Source: a virus
DNA length: 33,215 bases
UHGV virus genome: UHGV-1507039
Reading direction: 5' to 3' (one strand)
Each line of letters begins with the position of its first letter. Position 1 is the stretch's first letter. Positions 26 through 32,967 of this stretch are shown here, piece by piece. The notes below the pieces were generated by a model. It was given only the letters and a program-made list of their open reading frames with translations. It was not told the DNA's origin and did no database searches. Position numbers and translations under genes: made by a program.

Positions 26-697
26 TCAGCGACCAATCACCACAACCTGACCACCGTCCCCTTCGTCTGCCGTGCTGATCTCCTGAGAAACCACGCGTGA
101 CCCCACGCGCATTTCACCGTACAGAACCGGCAGAACATTGCCCTGGGCAACCATGTTATCCAGTGAGGAGAAATAGGTGTTCTGTTTGCCGTTATCCGTT
201 GTCTGTGTACGGGGAGTTCTGGCTTTCGGTGCCAGCATCTGCGCCACACCACCGAGCACCATACTGGCACCGAGAGAAAACAGGATGCCGGTCATACCAC
301 CGGCCCCAATGGCTGCCCCCCATGCTGCAAGGGTGGCTCCGGCGGTAAAGAATGATCCGGCAATGGCGGCAGCCCCCAGGACAATCTGGAATACGCCACC
401 TGACTTGGCCCCGGCGACTCTGGGAACAATATGAATCACAGCGCCATCAGGCAGAGTCTCATGTAACTGCGCCGTTAACCCGGACGTGCTGACGTCCCGC
501 CCGGCAATCCGTACCTGATACCAGCCGTCGCTCAGTTTCTGACGAAACACCGGGAGCTGTGTGGCCAGTGCGCGGATGGCTTCAGCCCCCGTTTTCACAC
601 GAAGGTCGATGCGGCGGCCAAATCGTTGCAAATCCCCGTAAAGGCAGATGCGCGCCATGCCCGGTGACGCCAGAGGGAGTGTGTGCGTCGCTGCCAT
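26..697 (-). CDS. I: Tail tip assembly protein I
   Basis: 223 aa ORF, near-identical to lambda I as recalled; overlaps K as in lambda. Confidence 0.9.
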   Translation of the reverse strand: MAATHTLPLASPGMARICLYGDLQRFGRRIDLRVKTGAEAIRALATQLPVFRQKLSDGWYQVRIAGRDVSTSGLTAQLHETLPDGAVIHIVPRVAGAKSGGVFQIVLGAAAIAGSFFTAGATLAAWGAAIGAGGMTGILFSLGASMVLGGVAQMLAPKARTPRTQTTDNGKQNTYFSSLDNMVAQGNVLPVLYGEMRVGSRVVSQEISTADEGDGGQVVVIGR

Positions 698-1338
698 TTG
701 TCGGTATACCTCTCTCGTTTGCTCAGTTGTTCAGGAATATGGTGCAGCAGCTCGCCATCACCACAGTAAATGGCGGCATGATTCGGCACCGATGAACCAA
801 AACAGCACAGCAGCACATCGCCCGGCTGCGCCGCTGACAACGGCACCTGATACAGCCCTGTGGCCTCCAGATTATCCAGATAGAGATTCTGACCGTGACG
901 CCACCAGTCATCCTCGCGATGAAAATCCGGCATCTCAATCCCCGCCAGATGGTAAGCATCCCGGAACAGCGTGTAACAGTCCGTCACCCCGTGCTCAAAG
1001 CGCCGCCCGGTGAGATGCGGCACACAGCGGAACTTATGAATCGTCCCCCGGCAGACCAGCCACCACGGCAAATCACTCTGCACCTGCAGCCGCCGGTCGG
1101 CCTCACTCAGCCAGGGCAGACCACCGGGGTGGCTGTGGACCAGTGCCACAATCTCACCCTGCATCTCTGCCTGCAGCCAGTCTTCCGGCGACATACGGAA
1201 ATACGCCTCCGGCTCACCGGAGATATTCACGCAGGGGAAATATCTTTCCCCCTCCGGCGTGCTTACCACGAAACCGCACGACTCCGCTGGCGCACATCGC
1301 CGGGCGTGCGCCAGAATCGCTGATTCTGTCTGTGTCAT
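595..1338 (-). CDS. K: Tail tip assembly protein K (JAMM/MPN plus NlpC/P60-like); long form 247 aa, alternative internal start near 1194
   Basis: Matches lambda K; N-terminal extension carries HSHPGGLPWLSEAD (HxH..S..D JAMM motif); long ORF begins 5 bp after L stop. Confidence 0.85.
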   Translation of the reverse strand: MTQTESAILAHARRCAPAESCGFVVSTPEGERYFPCVNISGEPEAYFRMSPEDWLQAEMQGEIVALVHSHPGGLPWLSEADRRLQVQSDLPWWLVCRGTIHKFRCVPHLTGRRFEHGVTDCYTLFRDAYHLAGIEMPDFHREDDWWRHGQNLYLDNLEATGLYQVPLSAAQPGDVLLCCFGSSVPNHAAIYCGDGELLHHIPEQLSKRERYTDKWQRRTHSLWRHRAWRASAFTGICNDLAAASTFV

Positions 1339-1343
1339 GGGAT

Positions 1344-2042
1344 TTACTGCGAAAGTTTGTTAATGGAAAGGAAGCCGCCAAAGTTGCCGACGTTATTGCG
1401 AAACTTACAGCCACTCAGGCATTTGCTGCATTTATCCTTCGTGATATCGGACGTTGGCTGGTCATATTCATCCGCGACCGCCGGACCGTGATAACCGCAC
1501 TCATCGCCGCGATAGGTCCAGGTGCAGGTGTTGGCCAGCATGATACGTCCCGGAAAAACAGCGCCGTCCGTTTCCGTCGGCGTGGACAGTACAAAAGAGG
1601 CACTGACCGCGCTCAGTTCGCTGCACTGCTCGATGCGCCAGCGGCTGATCACCTCCTGCTCCGGATCGGCATCGCTGTTTCCTTTGACGAAGTTCACCGC
1701 ATCCAGAAAACGGGCGTAAACCTTACGCCGGACCACCGTTCCGCTGACCAGACTCTGCAGATCTTCCGCCATCCCGGTGACCATACCGTACAGGTTAGAA
1801 ACCGTCAGCGTGGGGCGCGTACTGGTGCCTTTGCCATTCAGTTCAAAACCACTCCCCTGAATGGGATACGGCTGATACTCTCGCCCCTGCCAGGTGACCG
1901 GCTCACCTTTTTCGTTCTGCTCATTACAGAAAAAATAACGTTCTCCACCGACCTCTGTCAGGTCGATTTCCCAGAGCACCACGCTGGCCGACTGCTCCGC
2001 ACGGGTGCATTCATTCAGTGTTTCCTGCCGGATAACCTGCAT
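1344..2042 (-). CDS. L: Tail tip assembly protein L
   Basis: 232 aa, lambda L-like sequence (MQ.IRQETLNECTRAEQSASVVLWEIDLTEVGGERYFFCNEQ). Confidence 0.92.
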   Translation of the reverse strand: MQVIRQETLNECTRAEQSASVVLWEIDLTEVGGERYFFCNEQNEKGEPVTWQGREYQPYPIQGSGFELNGKGTSTRPTLTVSNLYGMVTGMAEDLQSLVSGTVVRRKVYARFLDAVNFVKGNSDADPEQEVISRWRIEQCSELSAVSASFVLSTPTETDGAVFPGRIMLANTCTWTYRGDECGYHGPAVADEYDQPTSDITKDKCSKCLSGCKFRNNVGNFGGFLSINKLSQ

Positions 2043-2371
2043 CAGTTCACCACCTGTTCAAACTCTGCGCTGAACTCAACACGCAGCATACTGACCCGCG
2101 ACGACCATTTTGCGCAGGTCACCTTTATCTGCCTGTAACCATAAGGCGGCATCCACAGAAAGGCCTTCCAGCCCCCGTGCTCAGCCAGAAACGACTCCAG
2201 CGCCGTGGCCTCCTCACGGGAGACAGACAGCGTCACGCTGTACGTTTTCAGGTTGGCATTCAGCCCGGCAGGCGCTCGCTGGGAATAGCCATCACCAAAG
2301 CGCACCTTTCTTACAGAAGGGGCCGAAGCCACATCCATACCGGGTTTCACTTTCCAGCAGAAGGTTTTCAT
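2042..2371 (-). CDS. M: Tail tip assembly protein M
   Basis: 109 aa, lambda M-like; overlaps L start and H end. Confidence 0.92.
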   Translation of the reverse strand: MKTFCWKVKPGMDVASAPSVRKVRFGDGYSQRAPAGLNANLKTYSVTLSVSREEATALESFLAEHGGWKAFLWMPPYGYRQIKVTCAKWSSRVSMLRVEFSAEFEQVVN

Positions 2372-4947
2372 CGTCCACCTCCGGAGAACAGACCACCATC
2401 GCGCATCTGCCCGGTCACAACATCCATTGCCGCCTTACGGGCTACGTCATAAACCGCCTTCAGCGCCTGTGGCCCTATCTGACCGTTCGTGCCGTCGTTG
2501 TTAATCACCACATGGTTATTCTGCTCAAACTTCCCGGACGCCTGCGAGCGGCTGTCCGCCATGCTGCCCGGTGTACCGACATAACCGCCGGTGGCATAGC
2601 CGCGCATCAGCCGGTAGAGATTCCCCACGCCAATCCGGCTGGTTGCCTCCTTAGTGAAGACAAATTCACCACGGTGAACAATCCCCGCTGGCTCATATTT
2701 GCCGCCGGTTCCCGTAAATCCTCCGGTCGCAAAATGGAATTTCGCCGCAGCTGCCTGAATGGCTGTACCGCCTGACGCTGATGCGCCGCCACCAACAGCC
2801 CCGCCAATGGCGCTGCCGATACTCCCGACAATCCCCACCATTGCCTGCTTAAGCAGAATTTCTGTCATCATGGACAGCACGGAGCGGGTGAAGCTGCGCC
2901 AGTTCTGTTCACTGCCGGTCAGCATCGCCGCCATATTCTGCGCAATACCATCAAAGGTCTGCGTGGCTGCACTTTTAACCTGCGACATACTGTCCGTGGC
3001 GCTCTCTTCCCACTCACTCCAGCCGGACTTGAGGCCTGCCATCCAGCTCCCGCGAAGCTGGTCTTCAGCTGCCCAGGTCTTTTTCTGCTCTGACATGACG
3101 TTATTCAGCGCCAGCGAATTATCGCCATACTGTTCCTTCAGGCGCTGTTCCGTGGCTTCCCGTTCTGCCTGCCGGTCAGTCAGCCCCCGGCTTTTCGCAT
3201 CAATAGCGGCCCGTTTTGCCCGTTGCTGCTGTGCGAATTTATCCGCCTGCTGCGCCAGCGCGTTCAGGCGCTCCTGATACGTAACCTTGTCGCCAAGTGC
3301 AGCCAGCTGGCGTTTGTACTCCAGCGTCTCATCTTTATGCGCCAGCAGGGATTTCTCCTGTGCAGACAGCTGGCGACGTTGCGCCGCCTCCTCCAGTACT
3401 GCGAACTGACTCTCCGCCTTCCACAAATCCCGGCGCTGCTGGCTGATTTTCTCATTTGCTCCGGCATGCTTCTCCAGCGTCCGGAGTTCTGCCTGAAGCG
3501 TCAGCAGGGCAGCATGAGCACTGTCTTCCTGACGATCGCCCGCAGACACCTTCACGCCGGACTGTTTCGGCTTTTTCAGCGTCGCTTCATAGTCCTTTTT
3601 CGCCGCCGCCATCAGCGTGTTGTAATCTGCCTGCAGAATTTTCCCGTCCTTCAGTGCCTTGTTCAGTTCTTCCTGACGGGCGGTATATTTCTCCAGCGGC
3701 GTCTGCAGGCGTTCGTAAGCCTTCTGCGCCTCTTCGGTATATTTCAGCCGTGATGCCTCAGACTCGGCCCAGTCCTTTGCTGCCATCTCTCTGGCCTTTT
3801 CAAGATCGGCCTGCAACGTGGCGGCTGAAAGCCCAAGTTGCGCATTCGCTCTGTCCTCCCATGCTCCCCGGAGATTGGCAAGAAATGCTGAGGTTTTACC
3901 GCGCCGGTGGCTCCGGCTCTGATACCACTGCCATTTTTTGTCCGCCTCATCAAAAGCCTTTTCTGCTTTCTCCAGCATTCCCTGGGCAGTGTCCGGGCGA
4001 CCAATATCCAGCACCGAATCCCACATGGATTTGAATGCCCGTGCTGTCCTGTCTGCCCAGGCCTCCAGCGTGCCCATGTTCTCTTTCAGGCGGCGGGTCT
4101 GGTCATCAAACCCTTTCGTCGCGGCCTCGTTCGCCGCCTGCAATGCCCCGGCTTCATCTCCGGAACGCTGCAACTGAGCAACATACGCAATCTGCTCCGC
4201 CGTCACGTTATGGAACTGACGTGCCATCGCTGTCAGTCCCGACGTCGGGTCTGTGGTCAGCTTCCCGAAGGCTTCAGCGACCTTGTCCACCTCCACGCCG
4301 GATGCAGAGGAGAAACGCGCCACACTCTGGCTGATCGCCTCAAACTGCTCACCACCACGCACACCGGCATTCACCAGCGCCGTCAGTGACTCGCTGGTCT
4401 GGTTAAACGTCAGCCCTGCCGCCTGCCCGGCTCTGGACAGGACCAGCATACGATCTGCCGTCAGTCCCGCCTGATTGCCGGAAAGGACCAGCGTTTTGTT
4501 GAAATCGGACAGGGTTGAGTTGCCCTGATACCAGGCATACGCCAGCGCACCGGTCGCCACCGCCAGCGAGGTGGCCCCCACCATGTTCAGGGTGATCGCA
4601 CCGGCAAGCCCCCTGAACATGGGGATCATCCCGCCGAAGGAGTCCTTAACCTGACCACCCTGTTGCAGCAGGATCAGCCACGGACTTTGCCCGCCTGCAA
4701 GCTGCGTGGCCACGTCAGTGAACTGTGCAGGCAGCATACGCATGGCGGCTTTATACTGCCCGACGGAAATTCCCGCTTTCTGTGCAGCCAGCGCCTGTCG
4801 GCTCAGCGACTGTTCAACGACTGCCGCTGTTTTTTTCGCATCACTTTCCGTACCGGAAAAATGACGCCTGACTCTGGCCATCTGCTCGTCAAATCTGGCC
4901 GCATCCAGACTCAAATCAACGACCAGATCGCCTACCGGTTCAGCCAT
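2368..4947 (-). CDS. H: Tail tape measure protein H
   Basis: 859 aa, lambda H-like start MAEPVGDLVVDLSLDAARFDEQ, Gly-rich C-terminal region; position after G/T. Confidence 0.93.
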   Translation of the reverse strand: MAEPVGDLVVDLSLDAARFDEQMARVRRHFSGTESDAKKTAAVVEQSLSRQALAAQKAGISVGQYKAAMRMLPAQFTDVATQLAGGQSPWLILLQQGGQVKDSFGGMIPMFRGLAGAITLNMVGATSLAVATGALAYAWYQGNSTLSDFNKTLVLSGNQAGLTADRMLVLSRAGQAAGLTFNQTSESLTALVNAGVRGGEQFEAISQSVARFSSASGVEVDKVAEAFGKLTTDPTSGLTAMARQFHNVTAEQIAYVAQLQRSGDEAGALQAANEAATKGFDDQTRRLKENMGTLEAWADRTARAFKSMWDSVLDIGRPDTAQGMLEKAEKAFDEADKKWQWYQSRSHRRGKTSAFLANLRGAWEDRANAQLGLSAATLQADLEKAREMAAKDWAESEASRLKYTEEAQKAYERLQTPLEKYTARQEELNKALKDGKILQADYNTLMAAAKKDYEATLKKPKQSGVKVSAGDRQEDSAHAALLTLQAELRTLEKHAGANEKISQQRRDLWKAESQFAVLEEAAQRRQLSAQEKSLLAHKDETLEYKRQLAALGDKVTYQERLNALAQQADKFAQQQRAKRAAIDAKSRGLTDRQAEREATEQRLKEQYGDNSLALNNVMSEQKKTWAAEDQLRGSWMAGLKSGWSEWEESATDSMSQVKSAATQTFDGIAQNMAAMLTGSEQNWRSFTRSVLSMMTEILLKQAMVGIVGSIGSAIGGAVGGGASASGGTAIQAAAAKFHFATGGFTGTGGKYEPAGIVHRGEFVFTKEATSRIGVGNLYRLMRGYATGGYVGTPGSMADSRSQASGKFEQNNHVVINNDGTNGQIGPQALKAVYDVARKAAMDVVTGQMRDGGLFSGGGR

Positions 4948-5374
4948 ACCGGACTCCTCCTGCGATCCCTTCTGATACTGTCATCAGCATTACGTCATCC
5001 TCCGTCATGTCCGCCACATCCGGGGAAGCGGGGATAACTTCATTCCCGTCCGGGCCAAAACGAACGCCTCCGGCAAGCCCTGCCGCTTTCTGCATCAGCA
5101 CATCATCTTCAGGCTCTTCGTCAGCCTCGCGCCGGTTCAGCAGACTGAAATCCAGCGGATGCATATCCGGATCGCTGAAAAACAGGCTGAGCACGGTGTA
5201 CGTCAGCCCGGAAAAGTGCATATCCAGCAGAACATCATGAAAATAATGGGTACTGTAAAAGCGGTGCCAGTCGGCATACTCCGTGGATGACATCCCGGCA
5301 AGCATGGCGCGCCAGTCGGGTCGCCCCATCTCACGCGCCAGTTTCAGGGCAAAACTCAGCTCACCGTCGAACAC
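4940..5374 (-). CDS. T: T portion of the G-T tail assembly chaperone, made only by -1 frameshift from G
   Basis: 144 aa ORF in -1 frame relative to G; lambda T-like; slippery heptamer at the G/T junction. Confidence 0.85.
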   Translation of the reverse strand: MFDGELSFALKLAREMGRPDWRAMLAGMSSTEYADWHRFYSTHYFHDVLLDMHFSGLTYTVLSLFFSDPDMHPLDFSLLNRREADEEPEDDVLMQKAAGLAGGVRFGPDGNEVIPASPDVADMTEDDVMLMTVSEGIAGGVRYG

Positions 5375-5778
5375 TTTCCCGCAGAAACAGGCTCTGCAGG
5401 CCCGGCGTCCTCTGCCTGTTCAGGGGCATCATTCACCACAAACTCATACATACCGGACAGCCGGTACACCACGTTTTCAGCATGAGAAATTGCCTCTGTA
5501 GGCCAGGTGGTAAGCACTTCCTGCTCAATCTGTTTAACGGCTTCATTCATGGAAGGCTGCTTTGTCTTCTGCGGATGGTTATGCCACAGGGACATCGCCA
5601 CCACAAAAGCAGCGGTTCTGATGGCGTCTTCCACAGTAAACTTCCGGTTGCTGTCTGACTCCGCCTGTTCTGCCTGTCGTTTCATCAGGGCGAGATGCTC
5701 AATACGCTGCAGGGCTGACAGTTCAGAAAGCGTGACGGTCACACCGTTATGTTCAAATGATTCGGTTTTCAGGAACAT
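5356..5778 (-). CDS. G: Tail assembly chaperone G
   Basis: 140 aa, lambda G-like; directly upstream of T and H. Confidence 0.92.
   Translation of the reverse strand: MFLKTESFEHNGVTVTLSELSALQRIEHLALMKRQAEQAESDSNRKFTVEDAIRTAAFVVAMSLWHNHPQKTKQPSMNEAVKQIEQEVLTTWPTEAISHAENVVYRLSGMYEFVVNDAPEQAEDAGPAEPVSAGKCSTVS
5374..5380 (-). promoter_or_regulatory. Programmed -1 ribosomal frameshift slippery site GGGAAAG (G to G-T)
   Basis: Minus-strand GGGAAAG (plus strand ctttccc) near the 3' end of G where the T frame opens. Confidence 0.8.
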
Positions 5779-5793
5779 CGCTGACTCTCCGGA

Positions 5794-6534
5794 TTAACTG
5801 GCGGTGACGTTGATTTCTGCAACCGCAGCAAACTCACCATTACCGGATACGACCGGAATGTTGACCTTGCCTGCAGCAACACCTTTCACGGTGATGGTCA
5901 TACCACTGACCGACACGGTGGCTTTTGTTTTATCCGCAGACACCGCACGGAAGCTCTTGTCGGTTGCGCCTTCCGGCTGGAATGCCACGGTCAGCGTCGT
6001 GCTCTGCCCTTTCACCACCGAGGTGCTGGCAGGCGTCACGGTCATGCCGGTTGCCGCTGTTGCCGTGCTGCGATCTTCTGCCATCGACGGACGTCCTACG
6101 TTGGTGACTTTCACCGTGCGGGTAATCACTTCCTTCGCCGTCACCGCCTTACCGATACTGCTGACCCAGCCGCGGAACACATCGACCGTGCCGTTCGGGA
6201 AGCGGATTTTATAGGCACGGGTATCACCTTCATTAAACCACGCCAGCAGCGCCTGCTGCCCCTGCTCTCCGGGCATCCACGCCAGCGTGAAGCTGGTATC
6301 TCCGGCAGATTTCTGCCCCTGCCCGGTCGCAGTCCAGTCTGCATCTTCATCATCGAGATAGCTGTCGTCATAGGACTCAGCGGTCAGTTCGCCGGGCGTC
6401 AGGTCTTTAACTTTTGCCAGACGCGACCAGTCAACGTCTGAAAGCGGGTTCGCATAAGGGTCACCGCTCCCCTTATAAACCCACAGGGTGGTCCCGGCAC
6501 CTTTCACCGGCATTACAGGATTTGGTACAGGCAT
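5794..6534 (-). CDS. V: Major tail tube protein V
   Basis: Lambda V-like from MPVPNP; C-terminal Ig-like region; ORF extends 10 codons upstream to 6564. Confidence 0.92.
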
Positions 6535-6541
6535 AGCGTCC

Positions 6542-6937
6542 TCACATTTCATAGGTAATGACATACGTCAGATCGGCTGAACTCCACAGGCCCGCATCAT
6601 CGTCGCGCCGGTAGTCATAGCCACTGGCCACCATACTGGTGATCAAATCTGACAGTGCCGGGATATCGCTCATCACCGGATAAATCCGGGACTCCATCCA
6701 CGAATCCAGCTCTGAATCCGGCACCTGAGCAGGCAGGAAAACTTCAATATGCAGCTCCGCCTGCCAGGTATCGCTGTCCAGCTCTTCGCCCGTGTATTCA
6801 GCGCCGGTGAGATAAACGGCAATTGCCGGAAAATCTTCCTCATCAAAAACAGCGGGGCGACCATCAAAAAGCGTCGCCCCGGTGTCATGCTTCTCCAGTG
6901 CATCCAGTACGGCTGCACGGAGTTCAGTATGTTTCAT
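6542..6937 (-). CDS. U: Tail terminator protein U
   Basis: 131 aa, lambda U-like ([22 protein letters not shown]). Confidence 0.92.
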
Positions 6938-7512
6938 CGCTTTATTACCATTCTCAGTTGATGCTGCAGCGCATAGCCCAGCTCTTTCGGAAGACGTTCA
7001 CGCCGTATCCGTTCAATATTCTGTTTAAACGCCGTGGTCAGCGGCACCGCCATCGGGATTTTCACCACATCAATGGGGTAACGGTTTTTCCCGGCCACAC
7101 GCTGCATGACATGCCACCGGCCATTTTTCAGTTGCTGAATAAACGCGCCGGGAATACGACGGTTTCCCACCACAAGCGCACTGCCGCCACCTTTCAGGGC
7201 TGAACGCTGCCCCTTTTTACGACGCCTGCGTCGGGACAGGACAACCCGCGCGTTACCCAGCTTTATTACGGGCAAATCCCCCCGGTTAACCTTGATTCTG
7301 GCCTGCGGATTTTTGACCGTGGCCCTTTTCAGCCTGGCCCTTTCCTTTACCAGTTTCCGGCGTACCTTTGTCTCACGGGCAACCTGTGCCACCGACTGCG
7401 ATATCGCGGATGAAGCAACGCGGTTAATGGCCATTGCGGCGGCACCGGGCACCGCCGTTCTGCTGATACGGCTGAGGTTTTCAACGGCCTGCTCAAGACC
7501 TTTTATGGCCAT
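6934..7512 (-). CDS. Z: Tail completion protein Z
   Basis: 192 aa, lambda Z-like; ATGA overlap with U. Confidence 0.92.
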   Translation of the reverse strand: MAIKGLEQAVENLSRISRTAVPGAAAMAINRVASSAISQSVAQVARETKVRRKLVKERARLKRATVKNPQARIKVNRGDLPVIKLGNARVVLSRRRRRKKGQRSALKGGGSALVVGNRRIPGAFIQQLKNGRWHVMQRVAGKNRYPIDVVKIPMAVPLTTAFKQNIERIRRERLPKELGYALQHQLRMVIKR

Positions 7513-7523
7513 ACATCCCCCTT

Positions 7524-7877
7524 TCAGCGGCGACGGTTAACGGCAGGCGGTACGCCCCGCCCAAGCCAGAGATGACAGCTTCCGCCATCATCCGGCGAAA
7601 TCCGGTCTATCCAGAAGTTTTCCTCACCGATGGTCAGCGTGTCGCCGCGCCGCAGCTGCCGCACATCATCAGTCCGGACAAACAGGGACGGGCTGGAGCC
7701 TTCAACGCGCACGCCCTGTCCGGCATAGCTGATATTTTCAGGGTCATCAAAAACACCACGTATCACAGCACCGGACTGCTCACCGGATGTCATGGTGGCT
7801 GACGTTCCCATGTACCCGCGTATCGTTTCATCGGCGCAGGCAATGGCAGCATCGAACAGGTTATCGAAATCAGCCAC
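7524..7877 (-). CDS. FII: Head-tail joining protein FII
   Basis: 117 aa, lambda FII-like (MADFDNLFDAAIA). Confidence 0.92.
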   Translation of the reverse strand: MADFDNLFDAAIACADETIRGYMGTSATMTSGEQSGAVIRGVFDDPENISYAGQGVRVEGSSPSLFVRTDDVRQLRRGDTLTIGEENFWIDRISPDDGGSCHLWLGRGVPPAVNRRR

Positions 7878-7888
7878 AGCGCCTCCCG

Positions 7889-8287
7889 TTATTGCATTCT
7901 GGCCAGGCCGCGCTCTGTCATTTCGGCTGCCACACCGGCAGAGACACGAAACGCCGTTCCCGGCAGCACAAATGCCACAGCCTCATCCCGCGTGGCGTGA
8001 AGTGCATCAGTATGCAGCTTCACCAGTGCCACGACCGTGACCAGTTCAGACGTATCCAGAATCACGGTATCCGGCTGCGCTGATACCACCTCATTTTCAT
8101 GTCCGGTCAGCACATTTTCCGGGCTGAGGGGGGTATCCTGACCGGCAGTGTCGCCCGTGTCATCAAGCTCTTCTTCCAGCTCTGCCACACGGAGCGCCAG
8201 TTCTTCTTTCGTCCCCGTCAGGCTGATATCACGGTTCAGTTGTTCACCCAGCGAGCGGAGACGGGCAATCAGTTCATCTTTCGTCAT
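7889..8287 (-). CDS. FI: DNA packaging protein FI
   Basis: Lambda FI-like from MTKDELIARLRSLGEQL; longer ORF extends to 8326. Confidence 0.88.
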   Translation of the reverse strand: MTKDELIARLRSLGEQLNRDISLTGTKEELALRVAELEEELDDTGDTAGQDTPLSPENVLTGHENEVVSAQPDTVILDTSELVTVVALVKLHTDALHATRDEAVAFVLPGTAFRVSAGVAAEMTERGLARMQ

Positions 8288-8328
8288 GGACTCCTCCACA
8301 GAGAAACAATGGCCCCGAAGGGCCATGA

Positions 8329-9354
8329 TTACGCCAGTTGTACAGACACGAACTCATCAGGGTCAGCCAGCAGCATCAGCGGTGCTGACTGAATCATGGT
8401 GAACTCTCGCGCCGGATCGCCGGATGTCTTCCAGTTTTTCGGATAACGGGGAGACGCATTAATACCCTCACTCAATGCATCCGCATCCTGAATACAGCCA
8501 TAGGTGCGCAGACCGCGTGCATGAGTGTTACCCAGCACCATCGTGTTGTCCGGCAGGAAGTTCTTTTTGACGCCGTTTTCCACGTACTGTCCGGAATACA
8601 CGACGATGGCCACATCGCCATACATCCCCTTATAGGACACCGCTTTACCCAGGTCTTTCACCGCTGTCTCCAGCTCGGAATGAGAGCCACGACGGGTATC
8701 CAGCTTCTCCCTGACGGCTTTGAAGGAACGGAACAGCGCCCAGCCTTTCGGATCGAACACGATGATATTCACCACACCGCTGGCGTTCAGCGCGTAGGCT
8801 TCGATATCGTCGGTCGGGTCATACGTGGACTTGTCACGCTTGCTCCACTCCGTGCCGCCGGACTGCGTGATGTTATTCTCCTCACTGCGGCCCATATCCA
8901 CCTCAACCGGATCGAAGGCTTCACCGGTCATGGTGTATTTGCCCTTAAGCACGGCAGAAACTGCCTGCATCTCTTCGACCTGAGCAATGGCCAGCTCTTC
9001 GTCACGCATGTTCTGCATGATGATGCGACGGCGGCGGTAAGCCGGGTCCGCCAGATTCTGCGGATCTTCATCCGGCAGGCGACGCAGGGTCATCTGCGGA
9101 TTCACTTCATGCTTCGGCTTGACATATCCCGGCGTAAATTCAGAGGTGGAGCCGCCACGGGAACGGATAACCTCACCGGAAACAATCGGCGAAACGTACA
9201 GCGCCATGTTTACCAGTCCCGGAATTTGTGAGAGATAGACTTTCTCCGTGGTGAAGGGATAGCTCTCACGGAAAAAGAGACGCAGAAACAGCGGATCAAA
9301 CTTAAATTTCTGCTCATTTGCCGCCAGCAGCTGGGCGGTTGTGTACATCGACAT
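8329..9354 (-). CDS. E: Major capsid protein E
   Basis: 341 aa from MSMYTTAQLLAANEQKFKFDPLFLRLF, lambda E-like. Confidence 0.93.
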   Translation of the reverse strand: MSMYTTAQLLAANEQKFKFDPLFLRLFFRESYPFTTEKVYLSQIPGLVNMALYVSPIVSGEVIRSRGGSTSEFTPGYVKPKHEVNPQMTLRRLPDEDPQNLADPAYRRRRIIMQNMRDEELAIAQVEEMQAVSAVLKGKYTMTGEAFDPVEVDMGRSEENNITQSGGTEWSKRDKSTYDPTDDIEAYALNASGVVNIIVFDPKGWALFRSFKAVREKLDTRRGSHSELETAVKDLGKAVSYKGMYGDVAIVVYSGQYVENGVKKNFLPDNTMVLGNTHARGLRTYGCIQDADALSEGINASPRYPKNWKTSGDPAREFTMIQSAPLMLLADPDEFVSVQLA

Positions 9355-9409
9355 AAAAAAATCCCGTAAAAAAAGCCGCACAGGCGGCCTTTAGTGATGA
9401 AGGGTCAGG

Positions 9410-9742
9410 TTAAACGATGCTGATTGCCGTTCCGGCAAACGCGGTCCGTTTTTTCGCCTCGTCGCTGGCAGCCTCCGGCCAGAGCACATCCTCATAACGG
9501 AACGTGCCGGACTTGTAGAACGTCAGCGTGGTGCTGGTCTGGTCAGCAGCAACAGCAAGAATGCCAACGGCAGCACCGTCGGTGGTGCCATCCCACGCAA
9601 CCAGCTTACGGGTGGAGGTATCCGGCATCAACGGAGTCATTGCTGGCGTTTTCTTACTCAATCCGCCGGGCGCGGTTGCGGTATGAGCCGGGTCACTGTT
9701 GCCCAGCGGCTGGTAATGGGTAAAGGTTTCTTTGCTCGTCAT
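9410..9742 (-). CDS. D: Head decoration protein D
   Basis: 110 aa from [12 protein letters not shown], lambda D-like. Confidence 0.92.
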
Positions 9743-9751
9743 AAACATCCC

Positions 9752-11051
9752 TTACACTGGTGTGTTCAGCAAATCGTTAACGGCATCAGATGCCGGGTTA
9801 CCTGCAGCCAGCGGTGCCGGTGCCCCCTGCATCAGACGATCCAGCGCAGTGTCACTGCGCGCCTGTGCACTCTGTGGTGCTGCGGCCAGAATACGGCGGG
9901 CCGTTTCCACGGTCATACCGGGGGTTTCGGCCAGCACGCGTGCCTGTTCTTCGCGTCCGTGAGCCTCCTCACAGTTGAGGATCCCCATAATGCGGCTGTT
10001 TTCTGCCGCAACCGCTGCGGTGATCTGCGCGTTCACGTCCGGCTGCGCCGCGCTGGCGTTTTCGCCCTCCGTCGCTGGCACCACGTCAGTAACGTCAGCC
10101 TGCGAAGCAGTGGCTGAAACAGTTGTTGATTGAGTCTCTTTGGTCATTCGCCCTCCTGAGAGACGGGATTTACGTGCATCCAGTGCATCACGCATGACGG
10201 TGATCGCATCGGTACTGTTAACAAGTTCATCAGCCAGTCCGGCATCAATGGCCTCCTGACCGCTGTACACTGCAGCCTCGGTATCCAGCACAGCCTGCAC
10301 GGACAGGCCGGTATATGCCGACACCTTCTGTGCAAACATCCGGCGGGTTGCATCCATCCGGGACTGCAGTGTTTCCCGGACATCATCCGGTAGATGGCTG
10401 TAGGGGTTGCCATCCACCTTATGGCTGCCGCTGTAAATCAGCGTGATTTCCACGCCCTGTTTCTCCAGCGCAGCACCGTAATTACTGTGAGCCATCATGA
10501 CGCCGATGGAGCCTGTCCGGGCGGTCTGCGTGACCAGACGCCGGGAGGCGGCACTGGCAAGCAGCTGACCTGCGCTGCAGTTCATGTCATTGGCCAGCGC
10601 CCATACCGGCTTTATGTCACGCACACGGGCGATGATGTCAGCGCAGTCAAATGCCCCTGCCACCATTCCGCCGGGCGTGTCCATATCCAGCAGAATGCCG
10701 TCCACCATCGGGTCGCTGGCAGCCTGTTGCAGACGGGCGATAATGCCGTTGTAACCGGTCATCCCCGAATACGGCTGCAGCGCCCGCGTCCGGCTGACCA
10801 GCGTGCCGGAAACCGGCAGCACGGCGATGCCGTTCATGACCTGATAACTGCGGGCCTGTCGTGGTCCGTCATCATCACCGGATAACGCCAGCGTCGCGGG
10901 TGCCTCTCCGGCAGTCAGGCTGTCGCCGGACACCGCATCCGTCAGGCGACTGATCCCAAGCTGGCCTGCAAGCGCACAAAAGAAAACCCGCGCATAGGCG
11001 GGTTCAAGCATCAGCGGCTCATTAAAAGCCATGCTGGCAATATGCGGGAGA

Positions 11052-11071
<20 letters not shown>
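9752..11071 (-). CDS. C: Head maturation protease / scaffold C, with nested in-frame Nu3 scaffold in the 3' part; GTG start
   Basis: Lambda C-like from (V)TAELRNLPHIASMAF; GTG preceded by strong SD AGGAGGAG; ClpP/SppA-like serine protease region. Confidence 0.88.
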
Positions 11072-14752
<3,681 letters not shown>

Positions 14753-14778
<26 letters not shown>

Positions 14779-15298
14779 TCAGCAACCCCGGTATCAGTTC
14801 ATCCAGCGCGGCTGCTTTGTTCATGGCTTTGATGATATCCCGTTTCAGGAAATCAACATGTCGGTTTTCCAGTTCCGGAAAACGCCGCTGCACCGACAGG
14901 GGGATCCCGTCGAGAATACTGGCAATTTCACCTGCGATCCGCGACAACACGAAAGTACAGAATGCGGTTTCCACCACTTCAGCGGAGTCTCTGGCATTCT
15001 TCAGTTCCTGTGCGTCGGCCTGCGCACGCGTAAGTCGATGGCGTTCGTACTCAATAGTCCCTGGCTGGAGATCTGCCTCGCTGGCCTGCCGCAGTTCTTC
15101 AACCTCCCGGCGCAGCTTTTCGTTCTCAATTTCAGCATCCCTTTCGGCATACCATTTTATGACGGCGGCAGAGTCATAAAGCACCTCATTACCCTTGCCA
15201 CCGCCTCGCAGAACGGGCATTCCCTGTTCCTGCCAGTTCTGAATGGTACGGATACTCGCACCGAAAATGTCAGCCAGCTGCTTTTTGTTGACTTCCAT
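14753..15298 (-). CDS. Nu1: Terminase small subunit Nu1
   Basis: 181 aa, lambda Nu1-like (MEVNKKQLADIFGASIRTIQNWQEQGMPVLRGGGKGNEVLYD). Confidence 0.95.
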
Positions 15299-15920: not shown

Positions 15921-15976
15921 AGCAATTTAGATAATCGTGCAGACTACACCCCTCATATCACATGGAAGGTACTACA

Positions 15977-16387
15977 ATGGCTCAGGTTGCCATTTTTAAA
16001 CAAATATTCGATAAAGTGCGAAATAATTTAAACTATCACTGGTTTTATTCTGAACTAAAACGTCACAATGTCTCACATTACATTTACTATTTAGCCACAG
16101 AGAATATTCATCTTGTTCTTGAAAACGATAATACGGTTTTAATAAAAGGACAGGGTAAGGTTGTAAATGTAAGATTTTCAAAAAATAAATGCCTTATAGA
16201 AGCCACCTTAAAAGGATTCAAATCAGGAGAGTTATCATTTTACGAATACAGGAAAAATCTTGCTACAGCAGGGGTTTTCAGATGGATTACAAATATCCAC
16301 GAAAACAAAAGGTATTACTATACCTTTGATAATTCATTACTCTTTACTGAGAACATTCAGAACACTACACAAATATTTCCGCACTAA
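15977..16387 (+). CDS. ybcV: DUF1398 family protein, YbcV-like
   Basis: From [18 protein letters not shown]; resembles E. coli DLP12 YbcV as recalled; ORF could start 5 codons earlier at 15962. Confidence 0.7.
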
Positions 16388-16878: not shown

Positions 16879-17346
16879 TCATCGAAGGCATTGCGTCCTG
16901 ATGTATTCCTGAAGCGTTCTCAGTGCTGTTTGGTCGCGGATAATTCCGTCCCGGATACCGAGAACGTTTCGTCCAGCAACTGGAGAGAGTTCGACGGTGG
17001 CATCATTGCCCATGCCGGAGGCGCTGGAGGTTTCGGCTGAGGATGGCACAGGGCATTTTCCTTTGACGAGCACCCGACCACCATTATCAAGCTTGCGCCG
17101 AAGAGCATCATTTTCAGCTTTCGCATCAGCTAACTCCTTCGTATATTTATCATCGAGTGCATCAGCATCACGCTGGCGCTGCTGCATGTCAGTAATGGTG
17201 GCGTTCGCCTTCTCCAGTTCACTGGCCTTGTTATCGCGCTGTTCTTTGTAGGCGATTGCATTATCACGGTAATGATTAACAGCCCATGACAGGCAGACGA
17301 TGATGCAGATAACCAGAGCGGAGATAATCGCGGTTACCCTGCTCAT
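16879..17346 (-). CDS. Rz: Spanin inner-membrane subunit Rz
   Basis: Start overlaps endolysin stop (ATGA); N-terminal TM helix then coiled-coil; Rz1 embedded in +1 frame. Confidence 0.88.
16920..17126 (-). CDS. Rz1: Spanin outer-membrane lipoprotein Rz1, embedded within Rz
   Basis: ORF nested in Rz in another frame; signal peptide with lipobox MVVGC and Pro-rich mature part. Confidence 0.8.
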
Positions 17347-17840
17347 TGTTGCCCCCACAAACAGACCTCACGCTCAATCTCACGACGAGTCATCAGGCCT
17401 TTCCATTGCTTACCGCCAGCGTATGCCCAGCGACGTAGCTGGTCACATGCGCCCTTGATATCGCCCTGGTTTATTTTGCGAAGAAGAGTAGATGTTCTGA
17501 AATTGCCTGCGCCCACGTTATAGACGAACGAGTAAAGAGCGCCGCGCGTTGTTTCCGGTATATCGACTTTGATGTACGGGTTAATTTGTCTGGCTACCGT
17601 GGCAAGGTCTTTATTCAGGAGGGCTTTGCATTCTGCTTCGGTATACGTTTTACCGGGAATGATGTCTTTTCCTGTATGCCCGTGACATACAGTCCATACG
17701 CCAACGATATCTTTGTATGGTATGTAGCTGACACCTTCCAGACCATCGTTACCACTTGGGCCAGTGATTAACACTGATGCTATAGCAATTGCTCCGCCAC
17801 CAATAGCAGCAGCAACGGCTTTTCGTAATGATGGAGGCAT
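17343..17840 (-). CDS. R: SAR (signal-anchor-release) endolysin, phage 21 R / DLP12 RrrD-like lysozyme
   Basis: 165 aa; N-terminal Gly/Ala-rich weakly hydrophobic SAR segment then a lysozyme-like domain. Confidence 0.88.
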
Positions 17841-18055
17841 TATTCACCTCTCGCAGCCTTGCGCTTATCTTCTTTAATCTTGAAATAAAGGTTTGTCAGG
17901 TACGTCAGCAGGCCAAATACCAGGCTACCCAGCACACCTATTGCTGCCCACTGTGAGGGCGTGACTTTATCGAGCAGCTGTAAAAACCAGTAACCGGCAC
18001 TACCTGCTGAGGTGCCATAGGCGACACCCGTTGTTAACTTATCCATGGATTTCAT
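17840..18055 (-). CDS. S: Class II pinholin, phage 21 S / EssD-like, with dual-start motif MKSM
   Basis: 71 aa from [26 protein letters not shown]; two TM segments; stop shares one base with the endolysin start. Confidence 0.88.
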
Positions 18056-18180
18056 AACCCCACCTCGCAGACAAAGCGGGTGTAAATTGAGGGAATACAA
18101 CGTATCGCAAAAAAGCAGAAACGTAACAGACTCGGAGTCAGTGAATAACTCAGGTATTGGGTTATCAGCTAATATCGAGA

Positions 18181-18216
18181 CTCAAAAAATGGAAAAACCC
18201 GCTCGACGGCGGGTTT
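18181..18216 (-). terminator. Intrinsic terminator on the minus strand upstream of the holin
   Basis: Minus-strand hairpin AAACCCGC-cgtcga-GCGGGTTT followed by TTCCATTTTTT. Confidence 0.65.
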
Positions 18217-18644
18217 AAGCTGTGTGACGAAGTAACCACTCTTAACAGCATAACCAATTTTTTACGTACGTAAACCACTAAATGATATTTGCGAGAATGC
18301 TACCGAGTATTGAAAACACCACTACGAATACATAAGCAAATCTCAACAAATAACCAACAAATAATTTCCAGCGTTATTTTTAGCTGGTTTAAATTGAACC
18401 TTCAAATTATAGAGCACTTATAAATAACAGCCATTAATATAAATTGACTAATAGATTTATTTTTATTCAGCCAAGAGCCATGAATAGGATTCGATAGAAA
18501 AAAGTTCAGATAAAAATAGAGATCTACTTCACAAATCAAACGAGAAACCAAAACTTACATCTTGAAATAATCACATTGATTAGATGAATATTTATCGCGC
18601 AGTGACATCATTTTTTAATAATAGTTCAAAAAAAAGGGCTCACG

Positions 18645-19727
18645 ATGAAAAAATTAACAGTGGCAATTTCTGCTGTAGCTGCATCAGTACTGATGGCGAT
18701 GTCTGCTCAGGCAGCTGAAATTTATAATAAAGACAGTAACAAGCTGGATCTGTACGGGAAAGTTAATGCTAAGCACTACTTCTCCTCTAATGATGCAGAT
18801 GATGGTGATACTACTTATGCCCGTCTTGGCTTCAAAGGTGAAACCCAAATCAACGATCAACTGACTGGTTTCGGTCAGTGGGAATATGAATTCAAAGGCA
18901 ACCGCGCTGAATCTCAAGGTTCCTCCAAAGACAAAACCCGTCTTGCATTTGCAGGCCTGAAATTCGGTGACTACGGCTCAATCGATTACGGCCGTAACTA
19001 CGGTGTAGCATACGACATCGGTGCGTGGACTGACGTTCTGCCAGAATTCGGTGGCGATACCTGGACCCAAACAGATGTGTTCATGACTGGTCGCACCACT
19101 GGTGTTGCAACCTATCGTAACAACGACTTCTTTGGTCTGGTCGATGGCCTGAACTTTGCTGCTCAGTATCAGGGTAAAAATGACCGCACTGACGTAACTG
19201 AAGCCAATGGTGATGGTTTCGGTTTCTCCACTACTTATGAGTATGAAGGATTCGGCGTGGGTGCAACCTATGCTAAATCAGATCGCACTGACGGTCAGGT
19301 CGCCTATGGTAAGAGCAAATTCAATGCCTCCGGCAAAAATGCGGAAGTATGGGCTGCAGGCCTGAAATATGATGCGAACAATATCTATCTGGCTACCACA
19401 TATTCTGAAACTCAGAATATGACCGTTTTTGGTAATAACCATATTGCAAACAAAGCACAAAACTTTGAAGCAGTAGCACAATATCAGTTTGACTTCGGTC
19501 TGCGACCATCTGTTGCTTACCTTCAGTCAAAAGGTAAAGACCTTGGTGTTCATGGTGACCGAGACTTAGTCAAGTATGTCGATGTCGGTGCTACTTACTA
19601 CTTTAATAAAAACATGTCCACTTTTGTTGATTACAAAATCAACTTAATTGACGATAGTAAGTTTACCAAAACAGCTGGTATTGATACCGACGACATCGTC
19701 GCTGTAGGTCTGGTGTATCAGTTCTAA
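18645..19727 (+). CDS. nmpC: OmpC/OmpF-family general porin, NmpC/Lc-like lysogenic-conversion moron, intact
   Basis: 360 aa; signal peptide ending AQA|AEIYNK; porin hallmarks including C-terminal VYQF; AT-rich; opposite strand to flanking Q and lysis genes as in DLP12. Confidence 0.9.
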
Positions 19728-19864
19728 TCTGATTACGAAAAAGATATGTTGCGGGAGGCTTTGCCTCCCCAACATATAAGTGGCTCCCTCAAGCCACTTC
19801 CTTTAGGAGCACAACCTTGCTTCTAACTATATAAACCTTCTGTTATATATTACCCTTTATTTTT
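19728..19864 (+). ncRNA. Structured porin 3' UTR, candidate IpeX-like regulatory RNA element
   Basis: Two stable hairpins (19744..19777 and 19778..19799) between the porin stop and its terminator; position matches where IpeX was described for nmpC/lc. Confidence 0.3.
19736..19777 (-). terminator. Candidate tR'-like late terminator downstream of Q on the minus strand (same palindrome as the porin 3' UTR hairpin)
   Basis: Minus-strand hairpin ATATGTTG-GGGAGGC-aaa-GCCTCCC-G-CAACATAT followed by CTTTTT, about 140 nt downstream of the Q stop. Confidence 0.4.
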
Positions 19865-19899
19865 GGGGGCGTCTCAACGCCCCATTTTTAATAATTTTT
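19865..19899 (+). terminator. Intrinsic terminator of the porin gene
   Basis: GGGGCG-tctcaa-CGCCCC followed by ATTTTTAATAATTTTT. Confidence 0.75.
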
Positions 19900-19916
19900 A
19901 GTAAACAATTGGCATA

Positions 19917-20300
19917 TTAATTAGAGTTATTAACAACGATATCCATCTCTAACCGGATATCTAATGCCATTAACATCCCTTCAATTATACCCTCAGCCTT
20001 CTGTAACCTTTTCCCGATATAACCATCAGAGCAGCAATGCTTACCTGCCAGTGACATGAATGTCATACCGACTACATAATAATCTACTAATAAATCGTGC
20101 AAATCGCTGTTGTTCTTTTTCAGACGGGCCATGCACCCGCAAATGATCATCGCGTCATCGTCACAACATTGTGGGCGAGATTTTACTTTTGAAGGAATTA
20201 ATCCCTTAAAACCGGCGGCAATGGACGACCAGGTCACATCTTCATGATTATTAGCCGCCCACGCTCCCCAACGCTCAAGAACCATCTGAATATCACGCAT
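19917..20300 (-). CDS. Q: Late-gene antiterminator Q, phage 21 / DLP12 QuuD type
   Basis: 127 aa from [26 protein letters not shown] with Cys-rich zinc-binding region; position between rusA/ylcG and the lysis genes. Confidence 0.9.
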
Positions 20301-20385
20301 CAACTTACTCCACAAAACTCAGACCAGAACGCCAATTACAAGCAAAAATCAATAAAACAGTATTAGTTGATTGTTATCTCTGACT

Positions 20386-20526
20386 TCATACTCCTGCTCC
20401 TGTCAGGGTTTTGGCGTAATTCCTCAGTATTCGGTAATCGGTCAAAACAGAACTGGGGAAACGATATAAGCGCAGGCGCATCCAGCGGTGGCGAAGAAGT
20501 TCTACCATATAAAACTCAAACATCAT
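20386..20526 (-). CDS. ylcG: Small protein YlcG-like (46 aa)
   Basis: [46 protein letters not shown]; ATG overlaps rusA stop (ATGA); not in the ORF track because under 60 aa. Confidence 0.7.
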
Positions 20527-27681: not shown

Positions 27682-27753
27682 GCGCGGCGTTACCGCATAC
27701 CAATAACGCTTCACTCGAGGCGTTTTTCGTTATGTATAAATAAGGAGCACACC

Positions 27754-27918
27754 ATGCAATATGCCATTGCAGGGTGGCCTGTTGCTGGCTGCCCTTCCGA
27801 ATCTTTACTTGAACGAATCACCCGTAAATTACGTGACGGATGGAAACGCCTTATCGACATACTTAATCAGCCAGGAGTCCCAAAAAATGGATCAAACACT
27901 TATGGCTATCCAGACTAA
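27754..27918 (+). CDS. cIII: CIII (FtsH inhibitor, 54 aa)
   Basis: [54 protein letters not shown], lambda CIII-like; below the 60-aa ORF-track cutoff. Confidence 0.85.
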   Translation: MQYAIAGWPVAGCPSESLLERITRKLRDGWKRLIDILNQPGVPKNGSNTYGYPD

Positions 27919-31513: not shown

Positions 31514-31856
31514 GGCCTGTCAGTTTCTTAAGATATCCAGACCAACCGCCACCAACTGGATACGAACAGGCCGCCTACAGGCAACACGTAAAGATCCAAC
31601 CAAGCCAAAATCTCCTTACCTCACAACACGGCAAGCCTGCATTGCGGCGCTTCAGTCTCCGCTGCATACTGTCCAGGTGAGCGCGGGTGATGGCATAACA
31701 GAGGAAAGAAAATGTCACTCTTCCGCAGAAATGAAATATGGTATGCCTCGTATTCGCTCCCGGGCGGGAAACGAATTAAGGAATCTCTTGGCACAAAGGA
31801 CAAGCGGCAAGCTCAGGAGTTGCACGACAAGCGAAAAGCAGAACTCTGGCGAGTAG
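31485..31856 (+). CDS. xis: Excisionase, AlpA/MerR-like HTH; 3' end uncertain because the frame overlaps int by about 145 bp
   Basis: From [36 protein letters not shown] (excisionase-type winged HTH); position immediately upstream of int. Confidence 0.55.
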
Positions 31857-32875
31857 AAAAGCTAGGGGATTTACCTGATGTCACTTTTGAAGAGGCCTGC
31901 CTAAGATGGCTTGAGGAAAAAGCTGATAAAAAATCTCTCGATTCAGATAAAAGCCGGATTGAGTTCTGGCTTGAACATTTTGAGGGTATAAGGCTTAAAG
32001 ATATCTCGGAGGCAAAGATTTACTCTGCTGTAAGCAGAATGCATAACAGAAAGACGAAAGAAATATGGAAACAGAAAGTTCAGGCCGCCATCAGGAAAGG
32101 TAAAGAACCGCCTGTTTATGAACCAAAGCCAGTATCAACTCAGACAAAGGCAAAGCATCTTGCCATGATAAAGGCCATTCTCCGTGCTGCAGAACGCGAC
32201 TGGAAGTGGCTGGAAAAAGCGCCTGTCATCAAGATACCAGCGGTCAGAAACAAGCGAGTCAGATGGCTGGAAAAGGAGGAAGCAAAACGCCTTATTGATG
32301 AGTGCCCCGAACCACTGAAATCTGTCGTCAAGTTTGCGCTGGCAACTGGTCTGAGAAAGTCGAACATCATAAATCTGGAATGGCAACAAATCGACATGCA
32401 GCGACGAGTTGCCTGGGTGAATCCAGAAGAGAGCAAATCAAACCGCGCCATTGGTGTGGCGCTGAACGATACCGCCTGTAAAGTGTTGCGTGATCAAATA
32501 GGCAAGCATCACAAATGGGTGTTTGTACATACCAAGGCGGCTAAGCGAGCAGATGGAACATCAACGCCTGCGGTCAGGAAGATGCGCATCGACAGCAAGA
32601 CATCATGGCTATCAGCTTGTCGTCGTGCAGGAATTGAAGATTTCCGTTTCCATGACCTCAGACACACCTGGGCAAGCTGGCTGATTCAGTCAGGCGTCCC
32701 ATTATCAGTGCTTCAGGAAATGGGCGGATGGGAGTCCATAGAAATGGTTCGTAGGTATGCTCACCTTGCGCCTAATCATTTGACAGAGCATGCGAGGAAA
32801 ATAGACGACATTTTTGGTGATAATGTCCCAAATATGTCCCACTCTGGAATTATGGAGGATATAAAGAAGGCGTAA
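31712..32875 (+). CDS. intD: Tyrosine integrase, DLP12 IntD-type
   Basis: 387 aa; C-terminal catalytic region with HDLRHT and RRYAHL(a)P motifs; adjacent to tRNA-Arg. Confidence 0.93.
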
Positions 32876-32890
32876 CTGATTGAATTGTAA

Positions 32891-32967
32891 TGGCGCGCCC
32901 TGCAGGATTCGAACCTGCGGCCCACGACTTAGAAGGTCGTTGCTCTATCCAACTGAGCTAAGGGCGC
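32891..32967 (-). tRNA. argU: tRNA-Arg (anticodon UCU), argU-type; likely carries the prophage att core at its 3' end
   Basis: 77-nt minus-strand sequence GCGCCCTTAGCTCAGTTGGATAGAGCAACGACCTTCTAAGTCGTGGGCCGCAGGTTCGAATCCTGCAGGGCGCGCCA with cloverleaf features, anticodon loop CTTCTAA and encoded CCA. Confidence 0.9.

Follow-up and report, generated by a model that had tools for sequence, protein, structure and literature searches.

The window analyzed here is a 33,215-nt stretch of virus DNA (UHGV virus genome UHGV-1507039), and the locus in question (positions 18645–19899) holds a porin gene of the NmpC/Lc type together with the structured 3' untranslated region (UTR) that follows it. The porin gene and the late antiterminator gene Q converge, and the lysis genes S, R, and Rz are likewise oriented opposite to the porin gene. 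This plus-strand position against four minus-strand genes agrees with what an earlier note on this DNA had stated. The features of the porin gene and its UTR are given below, with open reading frame (ORF) coordinates counted from the first letter of the window.

18645–19727, plus strand: porin gene of the NmpC/Lc/OmpD type, 360 amino acids, intact (ORF, Pfam, PDB, and identity to Lc/NmpC)
18645–18713, plus strand: signal peptide of 23 amino acids, the same as the annotated Lc signal peptide; mature PDB porins start aligning at residue 24
19728–19892, plus strand: 3' UTR, corresponding to the IpeX RNA region; 165 nt from the stop codon to the terminator U-run, ends approximate
19744–19777, plus strand: hairpin 1, a near-palindrome of 34 nt; its stem has 15 bp and a single bulged C, and the loop is 3 nt long
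19778–19799, plus strand: hairpin 2, with 8 bp and a 6-nt loop
19803–19826, plus strand: hairpin 3, with 9 bp; G19807 forms a G-U pair where K-12 has A-U
19828–19849, plus strand: hairpin 4, weak, with A-U pairs only; its loop ACCUUCUG is an anti-Shine-Dalgarno sequence
19829–19860, plus strand: proposed target-pairing segment, complementary to ompC -31 to -3; holds the MicC-like seed GUUAUAU..CCUUUAUU at 19842–19861
19866–19889, plus strand (stem 19866–19883): Rho-independent terminator of the porin/IpeX transcript, GGGGCGU CUCA ACGCCCC AUUUUU

Identity of the porin and its 3' UTR

The porin ORF is continuous and covers the complete Pfam model Porin_1 (PF00267; positions 1–337 of 337, E=1.9e-151). 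Residues 24–360 align with the mature chains of OmpC, OmpK36, and PhoE in the PDB (E about 1e-137), and the C-terminus reads VYQF, with an aromatic last residue. Residues 1–60 show no differences from Lc of phage PA-2, for which a signal peptide of 23 amino acids is annotated (J02580). The gene contains no insertion sequence (IS) element, whereas the K-12 porin gene upstream of IpeX in prophage DLP12 (nmpC) is interrupted by an IS5 insertion that follows codon 346, 58 bp before the stop codon. The view of this gene as a complete porin with a signal peptide and no IS interruption is thus borne out. The encoded protein has 91% amino acid identity to PA-2 Lc and also to K-12 NmpC, with the same signal peptide and N-terminal half as these two. 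Its identity to chromosomal porins of Salmonella, Citrobacter, and Enterobacter is 74–81%; these homologs are probably of the OmpD type.

The identity to PA-2 is unevenly distributed along the locus. It amounts to 98% in the first 540 nt of the porin gene, 74.6% at the DNA level in the 3' half (19185–19727), and 98.9% in the UTR from the stop codon onward. Amino acid changes and short indels relative to Lc are found at residues 181–230, 263–267, and 335–346. Because the 3' half of the gene is so much less similar to PA-2 than the adjoining UTR, the window porin is a mosaic allele, in which the 3' half was exchanged or diversified and the UTR was kept.

The spacer between the porin stop and the Q stop is 189 nt long, and 187 of these nucleotides are shared with the corresponding nmpC-quuD spacer of the E. 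coli K-12 prophage DLP12. Phage PA-2 has the same sequence as DLP12 downstream of lc, again with 187/189 positions identical to the window, and ipeX was defined there. The window departs from DLP12 and PA-2 at two positions: at 19760 the hairpin 1 loop has U in place of G, and at 19807 hairpin 3 has G in place of A. The RNA also occupies the same place, between a porin stop codon (ending at 19727 in the window) and a terminator (19866–19889), with the same convergence with Q and the same hairpins. The earlier note had proposed the UTR as a candidate for IpeX function by analogy with nmpC and lc. The alignment supports this reading and goes beyond it, in that the UTR is a near-identical copy of the published ipeX locus itself. 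An intact NmpC/Lc porin with IpeX is already known as a module, and no new element is involved. According to reviews, IpeX is a 167-nt RNA of DLP12 and PA-2 that is made from the porin promoter within the porin transcript, and its repression of OmpC and OmpF is post-transcriptional. Only some IpeX targets are said to require Hfq.

Of 5,426 complete E. coli genomes, 2,510 carry the spacer, as do 36 phage records. In these records, a search for more divergent phage copies yielded UTRs that are 93–99% identical, and all 80 of the 80 IMG/VR loci encode the identical porin. The homolog search turned up IpeX copies in E. coli and E. albertii only, and no IpeX-like 3' UTR was found downstream of chromosomal porin homologs in other genera (79 loci). 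Rfam gave no match in 19728–19892; this holds for the gathering scan, which covered the complete window, and for a scan of 18000–20500 at E<=10. This blank is read as Rfam 15 having no IpeX model and not as evidence against the identity. Two comparisons were set aside. In the sequence H70, the match is limited to the third of the spacer nearest to Q; H70 reflects an IS-mediated deletion and is uninformative on the natural layout of a locus that has no porin. Phage 434B carries the DLP12 segment itself and is no separate comparison, and its record has no annotation of the late promoter pR'.

The UTR is predicted to fold with -62.4 kcal/mol, compared with -31.4 +/- 3.1 kcal/mol for 200 dinucleotide shuffles (z = -9.95). 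The two strong hairpins that had been noticed before, including the 34-nt palindrome, were recovered, and two more that had been overlooked lie at 19803–19826 and 19828–19849. Among 14 distinct UTR variants, one compensatory pair was found (C-G to U-A in hairpin 1, in E. albertii), which is no better than in shuffles (192/500); because the variants are too alike (87–99% identical), covariation is powerless to test the hairpins. Where these variants differ in the 5' arm, hairpin 4 shows no compensating changes, which fits a constraint on the primary sequence of its loop and 3' arm.

On the minus strand, positions 19736–19777 read as hairpin 1 followed by CUUUUUCG, an arrangement that is terminator-like for transcripts leaving Q. 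In this orientation hairpin 1 could terminate read-through transcripts in the Q direction, and transcripts ending there would be antisense to most of IpeX. Such a use of hairpin 1, together with the standard terminator formed by the last hairpin and the lack of covariation support for a conserved RNA structure, would suit an alternative in which the hairpins are merely structural, as stabilizers of the mRNA 3' end and terminators of the Q and porin transcripts, with no role in trans in this phage. Against this alternative, the UTR is 99% identical to the fragment that has been reviewed as an inhibitor of OmpC and OmpF, and its 98.9% identity to PA-2 lies directly beside a coding sequence that has diverged to 74.6%. 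A purely structural UTR is considered improbable.

Complementarity of IpeX to ompC and ompF

The search for IpeX homologs gave rise to a lead on the possible mechanism. The only matches other than IpeX itself were on the reverse strand, at the starts of ompC-type genes of other Enterobacteriaceae. In E. coli K-12, IpeX 19834–19848 (5'-AACCUUCUGUUAUAU) is complementary to ompC -21 to -7 (AUAUAACAGAGGGUU) over 15 contiguous bp, one of which is G-U, and this pairing takes in the Shine-Dalgarno sequence GAGGG. Within IpeX, the segment belongs to hairpin 4: it starts at the final nucleotide of the 5' arm, spans the 8-nt loop, and includes most of the 3' arm. When extended to IpeX 19829–19860 and ompC -31 to -3, the duplex comprises helices of 9, 15, and 3 bp, with a predicted energy of -26.7 kcal/mol, vs. 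-26.5 kcal/mol for the MicC-ompC duplex in the same calculation. Windowed duplex calculations were used for these energies; duplexfold on the whole RNAs gave meaningless long-range duplexes.

The complementarity exceeds what is commonly seen in randomized sequences. In 1000 dinucleotide shuffles of IpeX, the longest run averaged 9.6 bp, and 15 bp was reached by 4. For the translation-initiation region of ompC, the pairing energy was -23.5 kcal/mol, compared with -15.6 +/- 2.2 kcal/mol for shuffles (z = -3.6), a value matched by 4/1000 shuffles of IpeX and 3/500 shuffles of the target. A scan with the seed region across 93,646 windows of Enterobacterales DNA gave as its best non-IpeX match the ribosome-binding site of an ompC ortholog (-25.7 kcal/mol), and the best site outside porin genes reached -24.7 kcal/mol.

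The predicted strength of pairing also differs among possible targets. Seed-region energies were -26.4 kcal/mol for E. coli ompC, -18.6 for ompF, -9.6 for ompA, and -11.9 for the ribosome-binding site of the phage porin itself, such that the top two targets are the two named in the literature. The pairing with ompF involves IpeX 19842–19857 and ompF -14 to +2; it is interrupted and lies over the Shine-Dalgarno sequence and the start codon. Once the cost of opening both RNAs is taken into account, the two targets, ompC and ompF, both come out at a net value of about -10 kcal/mol. On the IpeX side, the hairpin 4 loop and the linker are mostly unpaired, with an opening cost of 3.4 kcal/mol. In the 2006 study of IpeX, which reportedly dealt with a 247-bp region, OmpA is said to have been unaffected, and the effect on ompF alone is said to have depended on Hfq.

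The segment resembles the seed of a host small RNA. MicC reportedly pairs with ompC through a seed at its 5' end. This seed, GUUAUAUGCCUUUAUU, is resembled by IpeX 19842–19861 (GUUAUAU-AUUA-CCCUUUAUU), and the two would engage the same nucleotides of the ompC leader. Outside the seed, MicC has no homology to IpeX, and the two RNAs differ in architecture. MicC is a free-standing small RNA that pairs by its 5' end upstream of the Shine-Dalgarno sequence, whereas the IpeX seed is internal, lies in an mRNA 3' UTR, has a 4-nt insertion, and runs on across the Shine-Dalgarno sequence. The match between IpeX and the ompC ribosome-binding site has apparently not been reported before.

Alternatively, IpeX may be functional yet act indirectly, by titrating a protein factor or acting on another regulator, with the complementarity to ompC being fortuitous. 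Reviews state that IpeX was found to lack complementarity to ompC and may regulate indirectly, and they place the mechanism beyond simple base pairing. Moreover, AU-rich anti-Shine-Dalgarno sequences pair with many ribosome-binding sites, and the 4 shuffles that attain 15 bp indicate that such a run can arise by chance. However, a fortuitous match would have to coincide precisely with the MicC site and the Shine-Dalgarno sequence of a known target, with a predicted duplex energy equal to that of MicC. It would also have to outrank all 93,646 background windows except IpeX itself, and to produce a ranking (ompC > ompF >> ompA and the phage porin) that places the two targets named in reviews first. 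On the duplex predictions, a direct pairing between IpeX and ompC that is both real and so far undescribed may be given even odds, and an indirect mode of action appears to be the weaker, although still serious, contender.

The predicted late promoter and transcriptional layout

The surroundings of the porin gene affect how the locus may be transcribed. The neighboring features are as follows.

19917–20300, minus strand: late antiterminator gene Q, QuuD/Q933 type (Pfam Phage_antitermQ, E=1e-53), convergent with the porin gene
18247–18274, minus strand: predicted late promoter pR' (TTTACG, 16-nt spacer, TATGCT), with the -35 element at 18274–18269, the -10 element at 18252–18247, and a predicted start near 18240
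18188–18216, minus strand (hairpin 18216–18195): terminator-like hairpin with a U-run, candidate tR', downstream of pR'
17840–18055, minus strand: holin gene S, phage 21 type, the first gene of the lysis cassette
17343–17840, minus strand: endolysin gene R, lysis cassette
16879–17358, minus strand: Rz, lysis cassette

Positions 18275–18193 of the minus strand have 77% identity over 83 nt to the annotated pR' and terminator region of phage 933W, and are likewise homologous to the promoter and first hairpin of Sakai Sp5. In 933W, this region adjoins the Q stop, and the 933W Q is 79% identical in amino acid sequence to the window Q, which in addition has a distant match to Q21 structures. The homologous promoter of Sp5 (TTTACG-16-TATCAT) lies 258 nt upstream of a second terminator. 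In Sakai Sp5, the distance from the pR' start mapped by differential RNA sequencing (dRNA-seq) to the StxS 3' end mapped by Term-seq is likewise 258 nt (Sy et al., 2020). The two distances are equal, and the Sp5 promoter thus fits the mapped pR' start. In the window, the holin gene follows the promoter and hairpin, starting at 18055.

The earlier note had assumed that late transcripts from pR' must cross about 1.7 kb antisense to the porin gene before they reach the holin gene. This assumption is not supported, as the homolog of the Shiga toxin (Stx) phage promoter sits at 18274–18247, between the porin start and the holin gene. From these positions, the porin/IpeX module of about 1.65 kb appears to be an independent, opposite-oriented unit between Q and pR' that lies outside the late operon, and late transcripts therefore need not cross it. 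Antisense transcription of the module would be confined to rightward early transcripts that continue past Q. In the Stx phages 933W and Sp5, pR' abuts the Q stop, whereas in the window the module intervenes. A promoter placed directly after Q, from which all late transcripts would run antisense through IpeX and the porin gene for about 1.7 kb, would follow the layout of lambda and the Stx phages, but the window homolog of that very promoter is found on the far side of the porin gene, and the minus strand from Q to the porin stop (19916–19728) yielded no promoter-like site. Such a layout is regarded as very unlikely.

From the predicted pR', a constitutive transcript of only about 50 nt would arise. 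The window lacks the second terminator and the 74-nt 3' part of StxS, as judged with a 311-nt Sp5 query (positions 1000–1310 of locus L171); only query positions 12–93, which hold the promoter and the first hairpin, match the window. A weak Rfam match to Trp_leader at 18189–18311 of the minus strand was rejected as just the tR'-like hairpin. A separate stretch of 26 nt at 10980–11005 of the minus strand, among the long ORFs at 26–15298, is 92% identical to the tR'-type hairpin sequence of Sp5.

A GTTTAC motif with an A-rich run occurs twice on the minus strand, at 19897–19909 past the Q stop (GTTTACTAAAAAT) and at 18263–18275 at the pR' -35 element (GTTTACGTACGTAAAAAAT). The similarity is weak, and the repeat may be a remnant of the junction at which the porin module was inserted. 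In the phage sequence Lambda_2E9 (LR595860.1; positions 1802–2326 of locus L169), a gene for the lipocalin Blc lies antisense directly downstream of Q, in the place of the porin gene, and the Q gene has 87.5% DNA identity to that of the window. By analogy, this suggests that other cargo can sit next to Q.

Proposed action of the module and its biological meaning

Taken together, the window is best explained as carrying the classical nmpC/lc porin module by which Escherichia lambdoid phages convert their lysogens, in an intact allele with its IpeX RNA; this module would replace host porins through IpeX pairing, and a probability of roughly 0.8 is assigned to the explanation. As described in the literature for this module, the porin would be expressed in the lysogen, the porin transcript would give rise to IpeX at its 3' end, and both OmpC and OmpF would be lowered by IpeX post-transcriptionally. 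The further steps are predicted from the duplex calculations. The hairpin 4 loop ACCUUCUG and the adjoining nucleotides of 19829–19860 would pair with ompC -31 to -3, covering the Shine-Dalgarno sequence and the MicC site and blocking ribosome binding. A weaker, interrupted duplex would cover the Shine-Dalgarno sequence and start codon of ompF. The ribosome-binding site of the phage porin is not complementary to IpeX. The net outcome would be a replacement of host OmpC and OmpF by the phage porin.

Several points weigh against this explanation. The pairing with ompF is not significant when taken alone, as 101/1000 shuffles are as good. Conservation of the seed is suggestive only (2/24 columns vary vs. 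33/142 elsewhere, p = 0.076), and according to the reviews regulation is perhaps indirect. The high similarity of the UTR variants leaves the hairpins beyond the reach of covariation. For the layout, the assignment of pR' is based on 77% identity over 83 nt, and the -10 element of the window (TATGCT) is weaker than the TATCAT of Stx phages.

The wider context is that of a DLP12-like lambdoid prophage adjoining a tRNA-Arg(UCU) gene. The tRNA gene (anticodon UCU; 32891–32967, minus strand) lies beside a 387-amino-acid ORF in the position of an integrase (31712–32875, plus strand), similar to the arrangement of DLP12 at argU. Past the end of the lysis cassette, and on the other strand, there is a DUF1398 (YbcV-like) gene (15962–16387, plus strand), again as in DLP12. 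A lambda cIII thermoregulator element (Rfam RF01804, 88.5 bits) is found at 27741–27799 of the plus strand, opposite to Q, in a lambda-like layout. Long minus-strand ORFs occupy 26–15298, where head and tail genes would be located, and the prophage may be more complete than DLP12.

As such, a textbook conversion module that is present in almost half of the complete E. coli genomes adds little. Its location between Q and pR' corrects the transcriptional layout that had been assumed, and the complementarity to the MicC site of ompC makes a direct-pairing mechanism testable with few point mutations. If true, this mechanism would overturn the statement, carried in reviews since 2006, that IpeX is without complementarity to its targets, and the differing duplex strengths would explain why Hfq is said to be needed at only some of these targets. 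The interrupted duplex of 27 bp would join a MicC-like seed with an anti-Shine-Dalgarno loop. In that case, the 3' UTR of the very porin that replaces the target would contain an imitation of a host small-RNA seed, either evolved by a phage or captured.

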